A DNA stretch of 64,000 nucleotides from sequence record ON528725. The stretch is one strand, 5' to 3'. A program made the position numbers and the translations under genes. This stretch comes from Shigella phage ESh15. Below, one piece after another: positions 2,469-49,707 of the stretch. Within the stretch, counting starts at the first letter, position 1; every line of letters begins with the position of its first letter. Below the pieces are notes generated by a model, which was given only the letters and a program-made list of their open reading frames with translations, made no database searches and was not told where the DNA came from.

Positions 2469-2959
2469 TTAGGTTCCCAATCAACAATCACAATTTCTAG
2501 TTTAGTGGAATACGTATCTAAAATCTCTTCGATGACATCCCAGTTTCCACCACCAATACCTGCACCAATTCTTGGCATATAAATTACAGGCTTTGTTATC
2601 TTATTCTTTCCGAATTTATTTAATTCTATTATACAATTCATTAAAGCAGAGTACTCAAAATTAGGTCCCGGCTCAAACTGTGTATAAAGATTAAAGCAAT
2701 AAGCTTTATGGGTCTTAAAATATTTTTCATAAACCGAATAAGACCCGAGTTTAGACTCGTCTCCGAATTCGGTTTGAAGTTTATCGGCTTCCAGAATTTT
2801 TGGATAAGCCTTTGCTAATTGACCTGCTACACCAGCGCCCATTGTATGAAAACAATTACACCCATGAGCAATATTATTACCTTTAGAAAACAGGGCGACA
2901 ATATCGCCCTTGATATAGTTTTTAATCACTTGCTGCAAGTCCTCTAGTATAAGAGTCAA
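2465..2959 (-). CDS. macrodomain-like protein (putative ADP-ribose binding or hydrolase)
   Basis: motifs N-x-x-x-MGAGVAGQL and P-R-IGAGIGGG match the two glycine-rich loops of macro domains; first codon is TTG at 2957-2959 (GGTGGA SD), alternative GTG at 2927-2929. Confidence 0.55.
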   Translation of the reverse strand: MTLILEDLQQVIKNYIKGDIVALFSKGNNIAHGCNCFHTMGAGVAGQLAKAYPKILEADKLQTEFGDESKLGSYSVYEKYFKTHKAYCFNLYTQFEPGPNFEYSALMNCIIELNKFGKNKITKPVIYMPRIGAGIGGGNWDVIEEILDTYSTKLEIVIVDWEPK

Positions 2960-3269
2960 CTAGACGGTCCACCATAGAATTGCATGCTGCCTTATCTTTA
3001 GGTTCCGCCACCGAGCATTCTAATATTTGCCATTTTTTATAGTATCTTTTAATTAAGGTAGACGCCTTGAACCTACTAGACGCCCCATCTTTTTCTCCGT
3101 CTTTATATGCGTATAACAATTTTTGTGAAAAATCTACTTTACACTCTTGACTTTTACCACAATAATCAGACGCCGTTCTGTTTGTATACTCCGTTACATC
3201 AGTATATGTAGTATTAGCAAGAGCGTTAAATGAAACCAAGCCAACTATTAAAGCTAACATTTTGGTCAT
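2922..3269 (-). CDS. small secreted/periplasmic protein with signal peptide (vs position)
   Basis: 115 aa, N-terminal MTKMLALIVGLVSFNALA signal peptide, ATG at 3267-3269. Confidence 0.5.
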   Translation of the reverse strand: MTKMLALIVGLVSFNALANTTYTDVTEYTNRTASDYCGKSQECKVDFSQKLLYAYKDGEKDGASSRFKASTLIKRYYKKWQILECSVAEPKDKAACNSMVDRLVDSYTRGLAASD

Positions 3270-6412: not shown

Positions 6413-6742
6413 TTATACTCTAGGCTTTTGAGCTTGTTTGGTATTGGATTCCCACGCTGCTTTAGTAATTTTGTTAGCGGCATAGCCAAAGGCATTAGAT
6501 AGAACACCTTTAGAGTTGAATACATCCAATCCAATAAGTACACCGGCTGCGTTAAATTTAGGAGCAAAGTATGCATTAGTTTTAGAAAGAGCTTTTTTCA
6601 ATTCAGGGTCTTGAACCAAGCCATCAAAAACGCCTTTACCATTTACTTTATATGTTACTTTAGGATTTTTACCTTCTTCGATAGCAGCTTTCTGTTCCGC
6701 AGATAATGTAACTTCAGTGATAAATTCTTGATACGTTTTCAT
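6413..6742 (-). CDS. internal-protein (IP) candidate with capsid-targeting sequence
   Basis: 109 aa; N-terminus MKTYQEFITE matches the T4 IP capsid-targeting sequence; basic. Confidence 0.65.
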   Translation of the reverse strand: MKTYQEFITEVTLSAEQKAAIEEGKNPKVTYKVNGKGVFDGLVQDPELKKALSKTNAYFAPKFNAAGVLIGLDVFNSKGVLSNAFGYAANKITKAAWESNTKQAQKPRV

Positions 6743-6783
6743 ATGTTTCCTTTAAATGTAAATAGGCCTAAGTATAGGCCTTA

Positions 6784-7362
6784 TTAATTACCACGGGCCG
6801 CATTAGCGACGGCGTAAGCGTACTGAACATTAGCGTCTTTAAACGTACCTTTAGATGTATCTATTTCTGCCTTAAAGCCACCTTTAGCCATAACATCGGC
6901 AAATTCTTTACGGAAAGCCATTGCATCAAGACCTTTCCATGATGATTTATGCTTGGCAAATTCAAGACCAGCGTAGTTGACAGCTTTAGCTAATTTATTA
7001 TCAATAACCCATTTACCGGCTTTAGGCACAAACTTCGGGCCTTTTTGTTTAGAGAACAGTTTTAAATTCCAGCGACGAAGGTCACTGTCGGCTTTAACAA
7101 AAGCTGCGTCTAAGTTACTAGCAACAACATCTTCAATATGAGCAAATTTAAGTCCGTCAACTTCAATATTTAGATCGTTACGCCAGCGTAGTCCTTCCCA
7201 AGCGAAGGCTTTAAAATCAGAAGCCTTTGTAGCTAAGTACCGTTCAATAGGAGCTGTTTTAGGGTCAAAGCCGTTTCCGCCACGATAATTCCACTCGTCC
7301 TTATTAATGCCTTGAGCTTTTCCTGCAAAGGCCTCGGCGATAAATTCTTTATATGTTTTCAT
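6784..7362 (-). CDS. internal-protein (IP) candidate with capsid-targeting sequence (IPIII-sized)
   Basis: 192 aa; N-terminus MKTYKEFIAE. Confidence 0.65.
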   Translation of the reverse strand: MKTYKEFIAEAFAGKAQGINKDEWNYRGGNGFDPKTAPIERYLATKASDFKAFAWEGLRWRNDLNIEVDGLKFAHIEDVVASNLDAAFVKADSDLRRWNLKLFSKQKGPKFVPKAGKWVIDNKLAKAVNYAGLEFAKHKSSWKGLDAMAFRKEFADVMAKGGFKAEIDTSKGTFKDANVQYAYAVANAARGN

Positions 7363-7388
7363 TTTTGTTCCTATTCTTTTAATTTATG

Positions 7389-7703
7389 TTATTCTTTAGG
7401 GAAGTTTTTAGAGTATGCGTCATAAAGTTTATTACCGATGCGACGGAAGACTTTAGCTGCAAAACGGTTTTCAGGGTTTTTAATCATGATTTGCATCATG
7501 TAAGTTCCTGCATCCGAAAGAGCTTCTTCATAGTACCCGTTAATTTCTTTAAGAGTCCTACGTTTACCACCAGGACCATCAACAGTAATTTTCCATTTAC
7601 CTGTAGAAGTGCGGCTCGGTGGCTCAACTTGTTCAATCCAAATATAACCACCTTCAACGCGTTGGTTGGCGGATTCTGCAATAAATTCTTTATACGTTTT
7701 CAT
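7389..7703 (-). CDS. internal-protein (IP) candidate with capsid-targeting sequence
   Basis: 104 aa; N-terminus MKTYKEFIAE; early promoter cassette immediately upstream. Confidence 0.65.
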   Translation of the reverse strand: MKTYKEFIAESANQRVEGGYIWIEQVEPPSRTSTGKWKITVDGPGGKRRTLKEINGYYEEALSDAGTYMMQIMIKNPENRFAAKVFRRIGNKLYDAYSKNFPKE

Positions 7704-7733
7704 TTTTGTTTCCTTGTTTGTTTTGATAGAGTA

Positions 7734-7763
7734 ATTATACCATATTAATACTTAAGCGTAAAC
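7734..7763 (-). promoter_or_regulatory. early promoter (-35 GTTTAC, -10 TATAAT)
   Basis: gtaaac 7758-7763; plus attata 7734-7739 gives minus TATAAT. Confidence 0.55.
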
Positions 7764-7766
7764 AAT

Positions 7767-8027
7767 TTAAGCTTTACCGCCAGAAATAATTCCGAAGTTG
7801 TTAAAATCGTATCCAATATCGTCAACATCTACTTTAGGACTTGCTACAACATAAGCAATTTCACTACGTTTTGCATAGGTGTTGATTTCTTTACCATCGC
7901 CACCTAAGAAAGAATACCCATTACGTTTTAATGAGCCAAAGTCTTCCTCATCACCAATGAAAGCTTTAACTTTAAATTTTGGGTCTTTGGCATCTGCTTC
8001 AGTGATAAATTCTTGATACATTTTCAT
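7767..8027 (-). CDS. internal-protein (IP) candidate with capsid-targeting sequence
   Basis: 86 aa; N-terminus MKMYQEFITE; AAGGA SD. Confidence 0.6.
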   Translation of the reverse strand: MKMYQEFITEADAKDPKFKVKAFIGDEEDFGSLKRNGYSFLGGDGKEINTYAKRSEIAYVVASPKVDVDDIGYDFNNFGIISGGKA

Positions 8028-8033
8028 TTTTCC

Positions 8034-8447
8034 TTAGTAAATTGATTTACCATAGTATTTGTACCAAGTCGGACGTTGAGCAATTTTTTCATCTAAGCGT
8101 GCTTGACTTATCGCAATGGACGCTTCGGACGGGACATAATTATTACGAAATTCGGCAGGGATGTCGGAAATATCCTGGACAGTCGTGTCCTTGATTTTGA
8201 AACCACGTTTCAAACATTCAGCGATTAGCTCGATTTGGCGTAAACGTAAAAATTCGAGTTTGTCGTAAAAGAATGTTACGTGACCCTTGCCTAAGATAAA
8301 TGTTGGAGAGATTTTAAAATCCTTTACACGTTTACCGTTTTGAACATGTTTACGGACTGCACCAAATACGCGTGGTAATTCACGATACTCAGCCATAAGA
8401 TGTTGGTCGGTCAGTTCAGAAACAAGTGTTAAATTGATACGAGTCAT
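8034..8447 (-). CDS. denV: endonuclease V (pyrimidine-dimer DNA glycosylase)
   Basis: 138 aa from ATG at 8445-8447 (GGAGGA SD); [12 protein letters not shown]...AEYRELPR...WYKYYGK match T4 DenV as recalled. Confidence 0.9.
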
Positions 8448-8472
8448 AATTTCCTCCAAGTAGTTGATGAAT

Positions 8473-8504
8473 GTATAGTATCAAAACCCTTGGAGGAAGT
8501 AAAC
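8473..8504 (-). promoter_or_regulatory. early promoter cassette upstream of denV
   Basis: gtaaac 8499-8504; -10 TACTAT; 10-bp inverted repeat ttcctccaag/cttggaggaa pairs the denV SD with the promoter spacer. Confidence 0.6.
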
Positions 8505-8505
8505 A

Positions 8506-8787
8506 CTATTTTTCTGAAGCGCCTGAAATATATTTTTCAAGACGTTGTTTCATCAGCGAGCCGTTCTTAGCGATTTCTTCCGGTTTATCGCACATACGCA
8601 ACAACGCTTCAAGCTTAACGATATCACTGGTGCGCTCAAATTTGCGAGTATCTATCTTACTGGCAAGTTCAGAAATACGTGCTAATAGACTTTCAGCTTC
8701 GACCAAAGCTGCACCTAGCTTAGTTGCAAATGTGTCAGTAGCTTCGTTAAGAATAGATTCTGATAAAAATTCACTATATGTTTTCAT
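8506..8787 (-). CDS. internal-protein (IP) candidate with capsid-targeting sequence
   Basis: 93 aa from ATG 8785-8787 (ATGA overlap with e stop); N-terminus [10 protein letters not shown]; sits between e and denV where T4 has ipIII/ipII. Confidence 0.65.
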
Positions 8788-11166: not shown

Positions 11167-11472
11167 TTATTTTCCTCGACATTCTTTAATGAAATTTTCT
11201 AGATTGGTAGATTCAATAGCTTTTTTACGAGCTTCTGCATGTTCTTCTTCAGACAATTTACATTTATAATTAACCCAGACGTTATGGTCAAAACTAGTCG
11301 TGGCATATAATAACAAAGCCCCGACGAATAATAAAAACGGTGATAAGAATACAAAACCAGGAACACCATCCATATCGTAAGCCTTTTGTAATACTGCAAC
11401 AGAAAGAGTTGCGTAAAAAGGTGATGCAAATATTGTTAAAAGACCAATTCGGTTGGTTTCTGTTAATTTCAT
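11167..11472 (-). CDS. hypothetical membrane protein (101 aa)
   Basis: two predicted transmembrane helices; ATG 11470-11472 with GAGGAG SD. Confidence 0.5.
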   Translation of the reverse strand: MKLTETNRIGLLTIFASPFYATLSVAVLQKAYDMDGVPGFVFLSPFLLFVGALLLYATTSFDHNVWVNYKCKLSEEEHAEARKKAIESTNLENFIKECRGK

Positions 11473-11498
11473 AATATTCTCCTCATGTTTTAATAGGA

Positions 11499-11530
11499 CT
11501 ACTATAACATAGTCCTATAATTGTGTAAAC
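11499..11530 (-). promoter_or_regulatory. early promoter cassette
   Basis: gtaaac 11525-11530, -10 TATAGT, 9-bp inverted repeat ataggacta/tagtcctat. Confidence 0.6.
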
Positions 11531-11542
11531 AGTTTTGTGAAG

Positions 11543-12499
11543 TTATTTGAAAGGTTTTACCATATGGAAATTTTGTTTGAAACGTTTTACATAATCGTCA
11601 TGTCCTAAGCTTTGGTACATACTTACAACTTTGCTGTAGTTTTCCCAAGCGTATTCACGGAACCAGCCTGACGTGATTGAAGTACAGACCTTTTCAAGAG
11701 CCATCATAAAACTATCACGTGGATGGATTTTAAAGTCATTAGGAATCTGAGAACGTTCTAATGCTAGTACACATGATTCTTCGTATACACCGGCCAATTT
11801 GACCATTTCTGGTAATGATTCGAACTTCTCGCGTGAGGTCATGACTTCAGAACCATCTTTCATGTAAAACGTATAAGCAGGGCGGTCTGTTAGTGCAATG
11901 GCTTCGTGAATAGTATCATGATCGTATGTGTAGATGTCATCTTTAAAGAATGCGCTTTTAGAAGTGTCAAGAACCGGGTGAGCATAGTTCAATGTTTCTT
12001 TCTGGCGTTTAAGCATAATTTCAGTAAGTTCATCGTTCAGTGTAACACCTTTACCACGAAGATACTGAATATGGTTCATAGTCTTTAAAAAGAATGGATT
12101 ATTTTTCTTGAAACGATGAGACATCTTAATTGCAAGACACATCTCAGGAGTTGCCCAGTAAAACCCGTTCAAACGATCTTTAGTCAAATTTTTCTTGGCG
12201 TATTTTAAAAGGTCATAAGAAGACGTGAAATCTTCAGGAGTGAGTTCACCAACTAATTCACGGACATTAGTGATTGCCGGAACAATATATGCTTCAAAAT
12301 GAGTTTCGCGTCCATTATGGAAGCATTTGAAAACTTGGACATCAGGGTTATCTTGGTGAACATATACACCCATCATTTGATTTTTGAATGCATTCCAAGA
12401 ACCTTGGTCCGCAATAAAGTCCCAATCACTATTTTTGATAGCGCTAGAATCAATAAGGCCGTGATAGTGAAGTGCACGAGAACCAATAACTAACATCAT
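11543..12499 (-). CDS. hypothetical protein (318 aa)
   Basis: ATG ATG at 12494-12499 with GAGGA SD; N-terminal GS...DWD pattern weakly reminiscent of a nucleotidyltransferase. Confidence 0.55.
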   Translation of the reverse strand: MMLVIGSRALHYHGLIDSSAIKNSDWDFIADQGSWNAFKNQMMGVYVHQDNPDVQVFKCFHNGRETHFEAYIVPAITNVRELVGELTPEDFTSSYDLLKYAKKNLTKDRLNGFYWATPEMCLAIKMSHRFKKNNPFFLKTMNHIQYLRGKGVTLNDELTEIMLKRQKETLNYAHPVLDTSKSAFFKDDIYTYDHDTIHEAIALTDRPAYTFYMKDGSEVMTSREKFESLPEMVKLAGVYEESCVLALERSQIPNDFKIHPRDSFMMALEKVCTSITSGWFREYAWENYSKVVSMYQSLGHDDYVKRFKQNFHMVKPFK

Positions 12500-16269: not shown

Positions 16270-16292
16270 AACTTTTTCAGTAAGTTATAGAC

Positions 16293-16316
16293 CCCCTAAA
16301 GGGGACCGAAGTCCCC
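16293..16316 (-). terminator. GC-rich hairpin after the 16322-16942 gene (weak terminator or stabiliser)
   Basis: ggggac-cgaa-gucccc hairpin immediately after the stop; only a short U tract. Confidence 0.35.
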
Positions 16317-16321
16317 ATTCT

Positions 16322-16942
16322 TTACTTACGAGTTTTTGCATACTGAGCAGCGTCAGCAGCCAAACGACCTGCCTGACGAAGTTTTTCTTTAATCTCATCA
16401 TGAAGTGGTTGAGTATACTTCAAACCTTCGATAGTCAAATAAAGACGATAAAGGTCTGGGGTATCAAGGTTGTTGATATGTTGGCCATTACGAAGAATAT
16501 TAAATTCACGAACGAGTGAAGATGTATCGGATTCAATATCACGAACAAGCGAAGATAGTTGTTTATATTTTTTTTCCAGGCTAGAAGTATCAAACTTAAG
16601 AGCAGGAGCTTTAGGAGTTGCTTTTACTTCCGGCTTAGGCTCAGGTTTTGCTTTAGGGGTCGTAGGTTTAGGAATGGTAGGAGCAGGTTTTACTTTAGGC
16701 GAACCAGATTTAGCAGAAACACCACCACTAACAATATCTTTGAATGCTTTAGAAGCTCTGTAATATTCTTTTTGGCTGGAAGTGTCGATACCGTACATGG
16801 CTTGAACGTTTTTGAAAAACTCTGTACTAGTTTTTGTACCAGAAATAGCATCGTAAGCAGCTTGCCATTTCTCTTTTGTCATACGTACACCGGCTTCGGT
16901 GATTACTTCCGTTTCGGCTAAAAATTCATTAAAAGTATACAT
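16322..16942 (-). CDS. IP-like protein with capsid-targeting-like N-terminus and Pro/Lys-rich linker
   Basis: 206 aa; N-terminus MYTFNEFLAE; central KPAPTIPKPTTPKAKPEPKPEVKATPKAP low-complexity linker. Confidence 0.55.
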   Translation of the reverse strand: MYTFNEFLAETEVITEAGVRMTKEKWQAAYDAISGTKTSTEFFKNVQAMYGIDTSSQKEYYRASKAFKDIVSGGVSAKSGSPKVKPAPTIPKPTTPKAKPEPKPEVKATPKAPALKFDTSSLEKKYKQLSSLVRDIESDTSSLVREFNILRNGQHINNLDTPDLYRLYLTIEGLKYTQPLHDEIKEKLRQAGRLAADAAQYAKTRK

Positions 16943-16987
16943 TGATGGTCCTTAGAAAGTAGGTTTATTGTTTACTATATTTATACA

Positions 16988-17016
16988 AAAAAGCCCCAAC
17001 CTTTCGGAAGGGGCTA
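16988..17016 (-). terminator. rho-independent terminator at the distal end of the tRNA/stable-RNA region
   Basis: minus-strand hairpin agcccc-12nt-ggggcu followed by UUUUUU; near-identical to the terminator at 1106-1133. Confidence 0.6.
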
Positions 17017-17058
17017 TATACCTTGTCGGGGTTTCCACCTACTAAGGCAAGTGTTTGT

Positions 17059-17150
17059 ACGAAACGCCGGGACTCGAACCCGGTTATTAAGCAGTTGACG
17101 CTACTCAATATTTTTAAAAGGCCATATCTCGACCATATCCGAACGTTCCG
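17059..17150 (-). ncRNA. candidate stable RNA with tRNA-like T-arm and acceptor stem (not a canonical tRNA)
   Basis: CCGGG-TTCGAGT-CCCGG T-arm and a 7-bp acceptor pairing CGGAACG/CGTTTCG, but 92 nt with no canonical D or anticodon arm. Confidence 0.3.
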
Positions 17151-17318
17151 TCAAAAACGCTACTCGGCTTACGGCAAAGATATTTCCTCGAATCGATAAT
17201 TCGGTGCGCCGTTTCTGCTGTGATGTAAGGGGATATTAACGAATCATAAAGATTTATTAAGACCAGTCCTTACTCAGGGAACATCAGTCCGACGTCTTGC
17301 CGGTAGCGACCCGGCTTC

Positions 17319-17663
17319 TTATTTTGGCATATCATCAATTTGTTCTCGACGCCGACGCCATAGATTAATCGCTTCATTGGCACATTCTGCGTTTGGTATA
17401 TGACGGCAATAATATAATGATTCGCGTTTCTGGAACCGATGTTGCAATGGAATTTCGTTTAAAAGGTCTTTACGGTCAAAGTATTCAAAACTAGTTAACC
17501 CAGAACGGTTTTTAAGAAACTTCCAATGTCCGAATTCATTTTGAAAATAAACGTAATCAGCGTGTTGATATAACGAATTAATCAACCGGTCGGAAATAAC
17601 TGTATCCTGTTCGTTAAAATAAAACGTTAAATCATGAACTACCAAATAAATATTGCCTTTCAT
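17319..17663 (-). CDS. hypothetical protein (114 aa) within the tRNA region
   Basis: ATG 17661-17663 with GAGGA SD; the track start at 17711 would overlap tRNA-Arg. Confidence 0.45.
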   Translation of the reverse strand: MKGNIYLVVHDLTFYFNEQDTVISDRLINSLYQHADYVYFQNEFGHWKFLKNRSGLTSFEYFDRKDLLNEIPLQHRFQKRESLYYCRHIPNAECANEAINLWRRRREQIDDMPK

Positions 17664-17681
17664 ATTTTCCTCACTTGAAGT

Positions 17682-17758
<77 letters not shown>

Positions 17759-17761
17759 GAT

Positions 17762-17836
17762 TGGTGACCCTGGCTGGTTTCGATCCAGCTACCTATCAGT
17801 TATGAGCTGACAGCTCTCCCATTGAGCTACAGGGCC
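17762..17836 (-). tRNA. tRNA with CAT anticodon (Ile-CAU/lysidine type or Met)
   Basis: hand-folded cloverleaf: acceptor GGCCCTG/CAGGGTC, D-stem GCTC/GAGC, anticodon loop CTCATAA, T-arm GCTGG-ATCGAAA-CCAGC, encoded CCA; 3 nt from tRNA-Arg. Confidence 0.7.
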
Positions 17837-19341: not shown

Positions 19342-19650
19342 CTATTTTATTCCGCGTGATGCAATCGTATTCTGCCGTTTAACGCCAGTTTGTTTAAAGT
19401 TATGATTGTCGAGTTGATCGGTACGAGCAACTCCGAATGATGATTTAATCTTAGCTTTAGATCCTTTAGTTATAGAAATAAACATCTCGGGAGCCCCTTT
19501 CTTAAAGTCCGAAGCAATTACTTCAACACCGTTCTTAGCAAGTGACCTCAGAATTGCTTCCGCATACTCATCATCAAGACCCGCTTGAGTATGAATAACG
19601 AATGTCTTTGGTGCAGCTGCTTCACAGATAAATTCTTTAAATGTTTTCAT
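19342..19650 (-). CDS. internal-protein (IP) candidate with capsid-targeting sequence
   Basis: 102 aa; N-terminus MKTFKEFICE; basic. Confidence 0.6.
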   Translation of the reverse strand: MKTFKEFICEAAAPKTFVIHTQAGLDDEYAEAILRSLAKNGVEVIASDFKKGAPEMFISITKGSKAKIKSSFGVARTDQLDNHNFKQTGVKRQNTIASRGIK

Positions 19651-19680
19651 TTTATTTTCCTAATTAATTTTGATAGGACT

Positions 19681-19710
19681 ACTATAACATAGTCCTATCA
19701 GCATGTAAAC
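19681..19710 (-). promoter_or_regulatory. early promoter cassette
   Basis: gtaaac 19705-19710; -10 TATAGT; 11-bp inverted repeat. Confidence 0.6.
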
Positions 19711-19713
19711 TAC

Positions 19714-20001
19714 TTACAGAAGAGTTTTTGCAATAATTTTAAGCTGAGCTACAGAAATATGCTTAGCTTTAAACAGTGCAGTCTCTTCAGCTGGAGAGAT
19801 AACAATAGTAGCGCCATCTTTCTTAGCAGACCATCCATCACCTAAGTAAACAGTACCTTTTACTTCTTCGCCGTCAACCAGACTAATCATTGGTTTACCC
19901 TCACGTCCTTTATTTGCTTTAATAACTTCGGAAGTAAGGGTTGCTTCAGTCAGAGTAGAAACGTTAGCAACAGGTGATATAAATTCTTTATAGGTTTTCA
20001 T
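19714..20001 (-). CDS. internal-protein (IP) candidate, ipI-position and IPI-sized
   Basis: 95 aa; N-terminus MKTYKEFISP; adjacent to 57B as ipI is in T4. Confidence 0.6.
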   Translation of the reverse strand: MKTYKEFISPVANVSTLTEATLTSEVIKANKGREGKPMISLVDGEEVKGTVYLGDGWSAKKDGATIVISPAEETALFKAKHISVAQLKIIAKTLL

Positions 20002-48641: not shown

Positions 48642-49066
48642 TGTATCTTATCCCTGAATCTTATGAATTGGTACTCGAAAATGTCGAAGCACTTATTCCT
48701 GAAGCACAGGGCCGAATCGATGCATTGTCTTCCGCTCTCGATATTGACGATATAAATACTATTATCGAGAACATGCTTGAAACTGAAACGGATTTAGCTG
48801 TTGCAATGGCTTCCATTATTAATGAAGAACAGTTAAATGAGTTTATCGTTAAACATGTTTCTTCTCGTGGTGAAGTCACCCGCACTAAAGACCGTAAAAC
48901 TCGTGAACGTAACGCGTTCCAAACAACCGGTCTTTCTAAAGCAAAACGTAGACAAATCGCTCGTAAGGTCGTTAAAGCTAAAAAAGCTAACCCTTCAGGC
49001 CAAGTTAAAGGCATGCGTAAGCGTAAAAAAGCTCTTAAACGTCGTAAAGCATTAGGATTAAGCTAA
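48641..49066 (+). CDS. 68: prohead core protein gp68
   Basis: 141 aa, basic C-terminus; synteny. Confidence 0.8.
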
Positions 49067-49707
49067 TGAATAAACCCGAGTTACTTATTGAAACTTGGGG
49101 TCAACCCGGTGAGATTATTGATGGCGTTCCAATGTTGGAATCTCATGATGGAAAAGATTCTGGCTTAAAACCAGGGCTTTATATAGAAGGTATTTTTCTT
49201 CAGGCAGAGGTTGTTAACCGAAATAAACGTTTATATCCTAAACGCGTTTTGGAAAAAGCAGTAAGTGACTATATTAAAGAACAAGTCGCAACCAAACAAG
49301 CCCTTGGAGAATTAAACCATCCACCTCGCGCAAATGTTGACCCTATGCAAGCCGCTATCATTATTGAAGATATGTGGTGGAAAGGAAACGATGTATATGG
49401 ACGCGCTAGAATTATTGAAGGCGACCATGGTCCCGGCGATAAATTAGCTGCTAATATACGAGCTGGTTGGATTCCAGGTGTTTCCTCTCGTGGTCTTGGT
49501 TCTTTAACCGACACCAATAAAGGGTACCGTATCGTGAACGAAGGATTTAAATTAACCGTCGGCGTAGATGCCGTATGGGGACCTTCTGCTCCAGATGCTT
49601 GGGTTACTCCTAAACAAATATCAGAATCAGAAAATTCGGTGGAAATCACCAAAAACAGTGCTGATGAAGCATTTAAAGCTCTCGCAGAGAGTTTAAAAGC
49701 ATTATAA
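49066..49707 (+). CDS. 21: prohead core scaffold and protease gp21
   Basis: 213 aa; synteny 68-21-22. Confidence 0.9.
   Translation: MNKPELLIETWGQPGEIIDGVPMLESHDGKDSGLKPGLYIEGIFLQAEVVNRNKRLYPKRVLEKAVSDYIKEQVATKQALGELNHPPRANVDPMQAAIIIEDMWWKGNDVYGRARIIEGDHGPGDKLAANIRAGWIPGVSSRGLGSLTDTNKGYRIVNEGFKLTVGVDAVWGPSAPDAWVTPKQISESENSVEITKNSADEAFKALAESLKAL

Follow-up and report, generated by a model that had tools for sequence, protein, structure and literature searches.

Gene and locus

We analysed a 64,000-nt stretch of DNA from Shigella phage ESh15 (sequence record ON528725), called the window below, and in particular one open reading frame (ORF) on its minus strand, at positions 16,322 to 16,942, which encodes a protein of 206 aa. 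The window belongs to Mosigvirus, in the RB69/HX01/JS09-like group of T4-type phages; the 10-kb stretch around the gene is 95.7-96.6% identical to relatives including TH12, the LF82 series, SSE1 and HX01. A preliminary description of this DNA had called the product an atypical protein resembling the internal proteins (IPs) of T4-type phage heads, beginning with a variant of their capsid targeting sequence (CTS), and had placed the gene outside both classical ip loci and next to the terminator that closes the tRNA region. The position is as described: the gene lies between the two loci (19342-20001 and 6413-8787), directly after the rnaC terminator. The features of the gene and its immediate flanks are as follows.

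16322..16942, minus strand: coding sequence, with an ATG start, for the two-domain protein of 206 aa that carries the predicted CTS (ORF list; PHROG 2280)
16913..16942, minus strand: codons 1-10, MYTFNEFLAE, predicted CTS, with the first predicted site for the protease gp21, L-A-E, ending at residue 10 (position-specific scoring matrix; residues 4, 7, 8 and 10)
16895..16912, minus strand: codons 11-16, TEVITE, containing I-T-E, the second predicted gp21 site, which ends at residue 16 (alignment A1; disordered in the AlphaFold2 model)
16730..16876, minus strand: residues 23-71, N-domain of three helices (AlphaFold2 helices 23-31, 39-50 and 57-71; predicted local distance difference test, pLDDT, about 80)
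16610..16723, minus strand: residues 74-111, disordered, basic linker rich in Pro, Lys, Ala and Thr (pLDDT 31-44)
16331..16585, minus strand: residues 120-204, helical C-domain with the conserved NNLDTPDLY motif (AlphaFold2 helices 120-151, 162-175 and 178-204; pLDDT about 90)
16988..17015, minus strand: upstream terminator hairpin AGCCCCTTCCGAAAGGTTGGGGCTTTTTT, the end of the tRNA/rnaD/rnaC block (homologous to the T4 terminator after rnaC)
16978..16985, minus strand: TATAAATA, an exact T4-type late promoter consensus, 36 nt 5' of the ATG (sequence match)
16947..16955, minus strand: Shine-Dalgarno region AAGGA, 6 nt 5' of the ATG (read from the sequence)
16296..16318 (hairpin 16301-16316), minus strand: downstream G+C-rich hairpin GGGGACTTCGGTCCCC, directly 3' of the stop codon (kept in relatives)
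16268-16241, minus strand: early-type promoter-like site GTTTAC..TATTAT for the next gene, past the downstream hairpin

The translation starts MYTFNEFLAETEVITEAG, and its residues 84-112 form the Pro/Lys stretch KPAPTIPKPTTPKAKPEPKPEVKATPKAP. AlphaFold2, applied to a 15-sequence alignment, predicts a short helix at residues 4-10 and disorder at residues 10-18 ahead of the N-domain, and the overall layout agrees with the folded N-domain, basic low-complexity linker and helical C-terminal domain proposed earlier. Six residues of the N-domain (T22, W26, F42, Y60, A66 and K68) are invariant in the orthologue alignment A1, indels between orthologues are frequent in the linker, and the NNLDTPDLY region of the C-domain is a conserved block in the family alignments.

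Of 138 phage records, 130 carry an intact copy of the gene that covers 80% or more of the query. The gene is under purifying selection: comparison with close relatives gives a ratio of nonsynonymous to synonymous substitution rates (dN/dS) of 0.19-0.29, and comparison with JS98, for which synonymous change has reached saturation (dS 1.9), gives 0.11. PHROG 2280, a family of unknown function, matches at 4.6e-58 (residues 1-201 against positions 1-178 of the 178-position profile). Searches of Pfam, NCBIfam and PADLOC gave no match, a sequence-profile search of PDB gave nothing under E = 0.1, and a fold search with the C-domain gave only generic helical-bundle matches. Since an exhaustive phmmer search over 1.84 billion representatives returned only 13 relatives, there is no distant annotated homologue at that sensitivity. 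All the database copies of the family that we saw are labelled "hypothetical protein".

Predicted capsid targeting sequence and protease sites

In the T4 record, the CTS reads MKTYQEFIAE in IPII and IPIII and MKTFKEFTST...ITE in IPI. A class-based scan of the Met-initiated ORFs in all six frames of the window finds eight CTS-like starts, those of seven genes in the classical ip loci and that of the 206-aa gene. We also trained a position-specific scoring matrix (PSSM) on accepted IP N-termini (T4, RB69 and the seven IPs of the window), excluding the family of the 206-aa protein, and applied it to the 513 Met starts in the window that have at least 50 codons after them. The resemblance of the protein to a CTS exceeds chance: it scores 14.2 bits and ranks 8 of 513, after the seven IP genes (24.9-31.8 bits), while the next candidate below it scores 3.0 bits, the best in 20 shuffled windows 0.8 bits, and none of 1,615 null candidates reaches its score.

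Mutational work on the T4 CTS assigns targeting mainly to residues 4 and 7 and processing to residues 8 and 10 (PMC9026906). At these mapped positions the protein has Phe4 (aromatic), Phe7, Leu8 and Glu10, and both the score and these key residues uphold the earlier view of MYTFNEFLAE as a CTS variant. The protease gp21 cleaves C-terminal to Glu in I/L-x-E (PMC12991175), and this motif closes the IP propeptide (positions 8-10), whose length is 10-19 residues (PMC12991175, PMC9026906). The preliminary description had proposed looking for such a site after the targeting motif, and there are two, L8-A9-E10 and I14-T15-E16, ending at residues 10 and 16 and both within the segment predicted to be disordered. 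The protein has only one more motif of this type, I-K-E at residues 184-186; we rejected it as a site of C-terminal processing, since it is unconserved and sits within a helix.

Further evidence comes from the orthologues. It had been suggested that a wider alignment might expose the N-terminal similarity as coincidental; it does not, and the motif is kept. The N-terminus of the Dhakavirus orthologue is near-canonical (MKTYNEFLNES-VLNE-A), that of the Karamvirus orthologue is MLNFKEFIAESEYDVITE-A, that of the Tegunavirus orthologue is MLQYNEFLKESLISE-A, and MLKFKDILTES is the N-terminus in Clarke_MM3 and its relative P0019, which make up a Klebsiella phage group. The allele of RB69 and Tequatrovirus that is described below starts with MKTYAEFLTE and is more canonical than the 206-aa protein. 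An [LI]-x-E ends at residue 9 or 10 in 21 of 23 family members, and one more has its sole site at residue 15; a second [LIV]-x-E ends at residues 14-18 in most members, and Glu16 is invariant in alignment A1.

The window also contains the block of head-morphogenesis genes, and the protease is encoded there:

49066..49707, plus strand: gp21 prohead protease, the predicted remover of the propeptide (Pfam Peptidase_S77, 2.9e-107)

Near it, ORFs of 77, 141 and 270 aa occupy the positions of gp67, gp68 and gp22, an assignment made by position and length only.

Past the propeptide, the protein differs from the IPs of the window. Profile alignment by hhalign covers only about residues 1-28 against the IPIII-like ORF at 6784-7362 and only about residues 1-18 against the ORF at 8506-8787; what similarity there is stays within the N-terminal 17-26 residues, and no homology to the IPII and IPIII families extends across the mature protein. 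It does not match IPI_T4 (PF11634), the GmrSD nuclease inhibitor fold, and the true IPI homologue of the window is the 95-aa ORF at 19714-20001. Profile comparison with the gp22 scaffold protein showed no similarity. A diverged scaffold protein or IPIII paralogue is ruled out by this last result and by the confinement of the IP likeness to the N-terminus. IPs have been described as a conserved CTS on diverse mature proteins (PMC3012670), and a likeness limited to the N-terminus follows the same pattern.

Transcription signals

The octamer TATAAATA is the T4 late-promoter consensus. It occurs exactly 19 times in the 64-kb window, against 8.3 expected; the majority of the matches precede structural genes, and 7 are on the minus strand. 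A hairpin followed by TATAAATA, CATAAATA or GATAAATA stands in the same place in five genera. The arrangement of hairpin and late promoter is found upstream of the orthologues in Dhakavirus, Karamvirus, Kanagawavirus and Klebsiella phage Clarke_MM3, and the same hairpin with TATAAATA precedes bas36_0245, the positional homologue in Tequatrovirus. As read from these consensus signals, the gene would be an insulated late transcription unit within an early region, an arrangement that would suit a virion component.

After the downstream hairpin (16285-16320, minus strand) there is a conserved T/A-TTAGGGGGT motif where the U-run would be, and it is kept in Mosigvirus, Dhakavirus and Klebsiella phage Clarke_MM3 (stretches L001, L002, L004 and L007). 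This hairpin is unlike a classical intrinsic terminator on the coding strand, and a pattern scan calls one on the opposite strand only.

Predicted mature product

Removal of residues 1-10 or 1-16 would take away a computed net charge of -2.5 or -4.5, respectively. The predicted mature protein has a mass of 21.8 or 21.2 kDa, an isoelectric point (pI) of 9.6-9.7 and a net charge of +11 to +13; for residues 17-206 the values are pI 9.73 and net +13, and residues 74-114, which include the linker, carry +6.8. T4 IPs are described as basic proteins of about 8-20 kDa (PMC9026906).

Judged by its sequence, the 206-aa protein has every sequence-testable property of the class of CTS-bearing internal head proteins. 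These are a CTS with F4 and F7, a gp21 site (I/L-x-E), a scaffolding core and protease (gp21 by Pfam; gp67, gp68 and gp22 by position and length), and a basic and late-expressed character, the former indicated by pI and charge and the latter by the conserved TATAAATA consensus.

Homologous proteins in the rnaC-e.8 slot

In T4, nothing lies between rnaC and e.8. In RB69, this slot holds ORF149c (MKTYAEFLTEA...) and the overlapping ORF148c, behind the same terminator, and the two ORFs together are a frameshifted copy of the intact 187-aa bas36_0244 of the Tequatrovirus Paracelsus (positions 11429-11991 of stretch L009, RB69 NC_004928, and 2501-3064 of stretch L011, Paracelsus). The frameshift may be a sequencing error or mark a pseudogene. 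The first 104 residues of bas36_0244 are 95-99% identical in 165 records, mostly of Tequatrovirus, and the identity of this allele between RB69, a Mosigvirus, and Tequatrovirus is well above the genome-wide similarity. Such near-identity across genera suggests that the allele was recently exchanged laterally.

Paracelsus has a second CTS gene in the slot, bas36_0245, which encodes a protein of 157 aa (MKSYTQFLNEAVLNEA...) and lies directly after the rnaC terminator and TATAAATA, that is, in the position of the 206-aa gene. This type is present in 512 records; like the 138 and 165 records given above for the other two branches, these are not de-duplicated, and the three counts may overlap. Yersinia phage fHe-Yen9-01 carries tandem CTS two-domain paralogues, gp154 (MLQYNEFLKE) and gp153 (MLEYSEFLKE), 9 nt apart (stretch L008, 3001-4116), the latter of which combines a 0245-type N-domain with another C-terminal variant.

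The proteins of the slot share a common plan, consisting of the CTS, a small helical N-domain, a Pro/Lys/Ala linker and a helical C-domain. In hhalign comparisons, bas36_0244 and bas36_0245 each align with the family of the 206-aa protein over the full length, with a probability of 96% and E of about 1e-9. The metagenomic protein P0028 is 42% identical to bas36_0245 (8e-34) and 28% identical to the 206-aa protein (3e-14) by BLASTP, and consists of a 0245-type N-domain and a C-domain of the 206-aa type that includes NLDTPDLY. Conversely, the Kanagawavirus protein Q7622 and P0024 join an N-domain of the 206-aa type to an unrelated C-terminal part. These mixed proteins indicate that domains have been reshuffled around the linker.

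When T4 (stretch L010, 6125-6408) is compared with Paracelsus (stretch L011, 1518-3596), the rnaC-e.8 junction of T4 lies within the rnaC terminator (GGGGCTTTTTGG), in its 3' end, and the T4 sequence past that junction matches the region downstream of the bas36_0244 terminator. From this one comparison we infer that the cassette may be gained and lost by recombination with terminator hairpins as the joints. Between the two cassette genes of Paracelsus stands a second copy of the rnaC terminator, exact over 30 nt.

A modular superfamily, all of its members labelled "hypothetical", fills the rnaC-e.8 slot in several hundred Tevenvirinae records. The slot would effectively be a third ip locus in many Tevenvirinae, outside the two classical ones and absent from T4. 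In the description of the 206-aa protein as an atypical IP-like protein, then, the IP-like N-terminus holds, whereas the protein is not a one-off but a member of a widespread modular superfamily at a third ip-like locus.

Virion data for related phages

For Mosigvirus, Dhakavirus, Karamvirus, Kosakonia phage 305, fHe-Yen9-01 and JS98, literature searches yielded no usable virion proteome, and a term search of the proteome papers on Jiaodavirus and ECLFM1 likewise gave nothing usable for the family; Jiaodavirus phages probably lack the gene. One data set contains a homologue. Yersinia phage fD1 (HE956711) encodes g140 (157 aa, 67942-68415), which is 98% identical to bas36_0245, and g140 is listed as particle-associated in an analysis of purified virions with liquid chromatography-tandem mass spectrometry (LC-MS/MS) (PMC8309999 Table S3). 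The virion list includes neither its neighbours g138 and g139 (e.8) nor the degraded core protein gp67 (PMC8309999).

Proposed role and alternative explanations

We conclude, with a probability of roughly 70%, that the 206-aa protein represents a new family of T4-type internal head protein that is packaged by means of its CTS and trimmed by gp21. Several observations weigh against this conclusion. Position 2, usually Lys, is Tyr; in some orthologues position 7 is Ile or the register is shifted, and P0027, one weak distant match, has no CTS. The late promoter is a consensus match only. The searchable literature contains no virion proteomics or N-terminal sequencing for the protein or its close orthologues, and the detection of fD1 g140 gives weak support because that data set is permissive, with 113-137 of 277 gene products called particle-associated (PMC8309999). 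Finally, the fold and family searches gave no match that indicates an activity of the mature protein.

The sequence of events that we propose is modelled on T4. The gene would be transcribed late, from TATAAATA. By the match of its motif and the rules established for T4, MYTFNEFLAE would bind the precursor to the prohead scaffolding core, and gp21 would then cut after Glu10 (L-A-E), after the invariant Glu16 (I-T-E), or after both, releasing an acidic propeptide. The basic mature protein of about 21 kDa would be kept in the head with the DNA, largely through probable contacts of the Lys-rich linker with DNA phosphates, as lysines of T4 internal proteins have been found by nuclear magnetic resonance (NMR) to contact DNA phosphates (PMC3012670). 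By analogy, the mature protein would probably be ejected into the cell together with the genome, where, speculatively, its two small helical domains could act on a host or defence factor. Such an action is suggested by the presence/absence polymorphism, tandem paralogy and domain shuffling described above, and reshuffling of domains between phages is as expected for arms-race proteins. The binding of DNA or of a host factor, which the preliminary description had suggested, and the role after injection are conjecture, the latter because the fold and family searches point to no activity.

A broader proposal, which we make tentatively and would not ourselves expect to hold in full, is that rnaC-e.8 is an unrecognised hyperplastic IP locus made up of terminator-bounded late cassettes, which T4 has lost through recombination inside the terminators. 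The locus would encode injected effectors with shuffled domains that ride on the DNA by a Lys/Pro linker and serve anti-defence or host takeover before gene expression.

The protein could also be packaged and yet not be an injected effector, acting instead as an accessory of the prohead core in head assembly or DNA condensation, as a polycationic counter-ion or core organiser. This explanation shares the CTS, the cleavage sites and the late promoter with the one that we prefer. The Lys-rich linker and the net charge of +13 suit it, as do the contacts of internal-protein lysines with DNA phosphates in T4 (PMC3012670), the slowed head assembly and reduced burst of IPIII mutants (PMC9026906) and the moderately strong purifying selection (dN/dS 0.1-0.3). 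However, the cassette is missing from T4 and many relatives, the protein does not resemble gp22, and the swapping of alleles and domains between phages, together with the tandem paralogues in some of them, better suits an accessory, host-directed role. We consider it unlikely. More improbable still is a late cytoplasmic protein that is never packaged, whose CTS-like 5' end was acquired by recombination among ip-type genes or is selected for translation initiation. Such a protein would account for the replacement of Lys2 by Tyr, for the location outside the classical ip loci and for virion evidence that consists of no direct proteomic detection of the protein itself and of one distant homologue in a permissive data set. 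Against it, the motif persists at the amino-acid level across genera between which synonymous change has reached saturation (dS 1.9 to JS98); what is conserved is precisely the four positions with a mapped function, and an invariant I/L-x-E-A/S site comes after them. In addition, all paralogous families of the slot keep the CTS although their mature parts have diverged almost past pairwise recognition, and the conservation of a late promoter within a region that is otherwise early is in keeping with a virion component.

That the ORF is spurious or decaying, its linker an artefact of translating repeats or non-coding DNA, might be suspected from the low complexity of the linker and from the annotation of the related RB69 allele as two frameshifted ORFs. 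This reading is effectively refuted by the conservation data, namely the 130 intact copies among 138 records and the dN/dS of 0.1-0.3; moreover, both domains are confidently predicted, and the promoter, ribosome-binding site and hairpins are conserved.

Relation to known packaged proteins

The candidate internal head protein resembles the T4 IPs in its CTS of about 10 residues (aromatic residue at 4, Phe at 7, Ile/Leu at 8, Glu at 10), in a propeptide of 10-19 residues closing in I/L-x-E, and in a basic mature protein of about 21 kDa, near the size of IPIII. Like them, it is accessory and non-conserved, is encoded in the variable region between 57B and e, and has a mature sequence unrelated to other IPs. 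It differs in having no similarity past the propeptide and no IPI_T4 domain, in its locus (rnaC-e.8, not beside 57B or denV/e) and in its two-domain build with a long disordered Pro/Lys linker, whereas T4 IPI* is a single compact domain. In contrast to the T4 IPs, its packaging, processing and injection are predictions. What is new here is an unnamed IP-type family with an unusual two-domain-plus-linker build that is not the IPI, IPII or IPIII sequence family.

Among the proteins of the slot, fD1 g140, bas36_0245 and RB32ORF132c of Tequatrovirus share its architecture, with homology established through P0028 and hhalign; they have another N-domain sequence, a shorter linker and a C-domain without the NNLDTPDLY segment, and their pairwise identity to it is too low for direct detection by BLAST. 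RB69 ORF149c/148c and bas36_0244 share the slot, a CTS (MKTYAEFLTE), the two-domain plan and the hhalign probability of 96%, but are a divergent allele, which is frameshifted in the RB69 reference. Outside the IPs, T4 Alt is a packaged ADP-ribosyltransferase that is trimmed by gp21 and injected, and it has an N-terminal I-T-E site (PMC5694885). Alt resembles the 206-aa protein in this N-terminal I-T-E, and demonstrates that proteins other than small IPs use the head-packaging route. Unlike it, Alt, an enzyme of 70 kDa, has a fold that can be recognised and is processed at its C-terminus as well; the 206-aa protein has neither an enzymatic signature nor a conserved C-terminal site.

Head-packaged proteins enter the cell before any phage gene expression, which makes them prime candidates for counter-defence, and the action of IPI* on GmrSD is a precedent for a packaged counter-defence protein. 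To our knowledge, studies of such proteins have been limited to three IPs and Alt, since the model phage, T4, is one without this cassette. Being broad, modular and absent from T4, the superfamily is a set of possible injected counter-defence factors that is worth testing and easy to test. It offers cheap candidates for virion proteomics and for host-range and anti-defence screens, and many carriers are candidate therapeutic phages. The results suggest that simple CTS-motif scans could list the injected proteome of any T4-like genome, and the natural CTS variants MYTFNEFLAE, MLNFKEFIAE and MLKFKDILTE widen the known tolerance of the tag for phage engineering.

Other features of the window

Gene order on the minus strand was assigned by homology to annotated relatives. 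It runs gp2, gp3, gp1, 57A, 57B, two IP genes, four small ORFs, tRNA-Met, tRNA-Arg, a homologue of RB69ORF150c, rnaD, rnaC, the terminator hairpin, the 206-aa gene, the genes of the e.8 region and the second IP cluster. The features on both sides of the gene are as follows.

19342-20001, minus strand: ip locus on the 57B side, with two IP genes; its 95-aa ORF at 19714-20001 matches Pfam IPI_T4
19342-19650, minus strand: second IP gene of the 57B side, 102 aa, MKTFKEFICE
17762-17836, minus strand: tRNA-Met
17682-17758, minus strand: tRNA-Arg
about 17319-17663, minus strand: homologue of RB69ORF150c (ORF114, 114 aa), adjoining rnaD; no Pfam match
17203-17322, minus strand: rnaD, 84% identical to T4 over 121 nt (BLAST)
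17058-17196, minus strand: rnaC, 97.8% identical to T4 over 139 nt (BLAST)
6413-8787, minus strand: ip locus on the denV/e side (by homology to RB69)

The ORF list gives a 130-aa ORF at 17319-17711 (minus strand) that begins at a TTG inside tRNA-Arg. Since annotated homologues of RB69ORF150c start further downstream, the true coding region is placed at about 17319-17663. Neither rnaC nor rnaD has a family in Rfam 15 (nothing at E up to 1), and rnaC is conserved far above the surrounding sequence. In Pfam, the 102-aa IP at 19342-19650 matches AbiJ_NTD3 weakly (E 0.0076), its 16 bits falling short of the 32.5-bit cutoff; the match is probably noise, though curious for an injected protein.

On the denV/e side, five CTS ORFs, of 109, 192, 104, 86 and 93 aa, alternate with denV. 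The one of 192 aa resembles T4 IPIII and is seemingly missing at this locus from the RB69 reference. Contrary to the textbook description of IPs as basic, two of the five are acidic (pI 4.9 and 5.5), and the 93-aa ORF has the two-site propeptide layout LSE-S-ILNE-A that is common to the Dhakavirus orthologues of the 206-aa protein.

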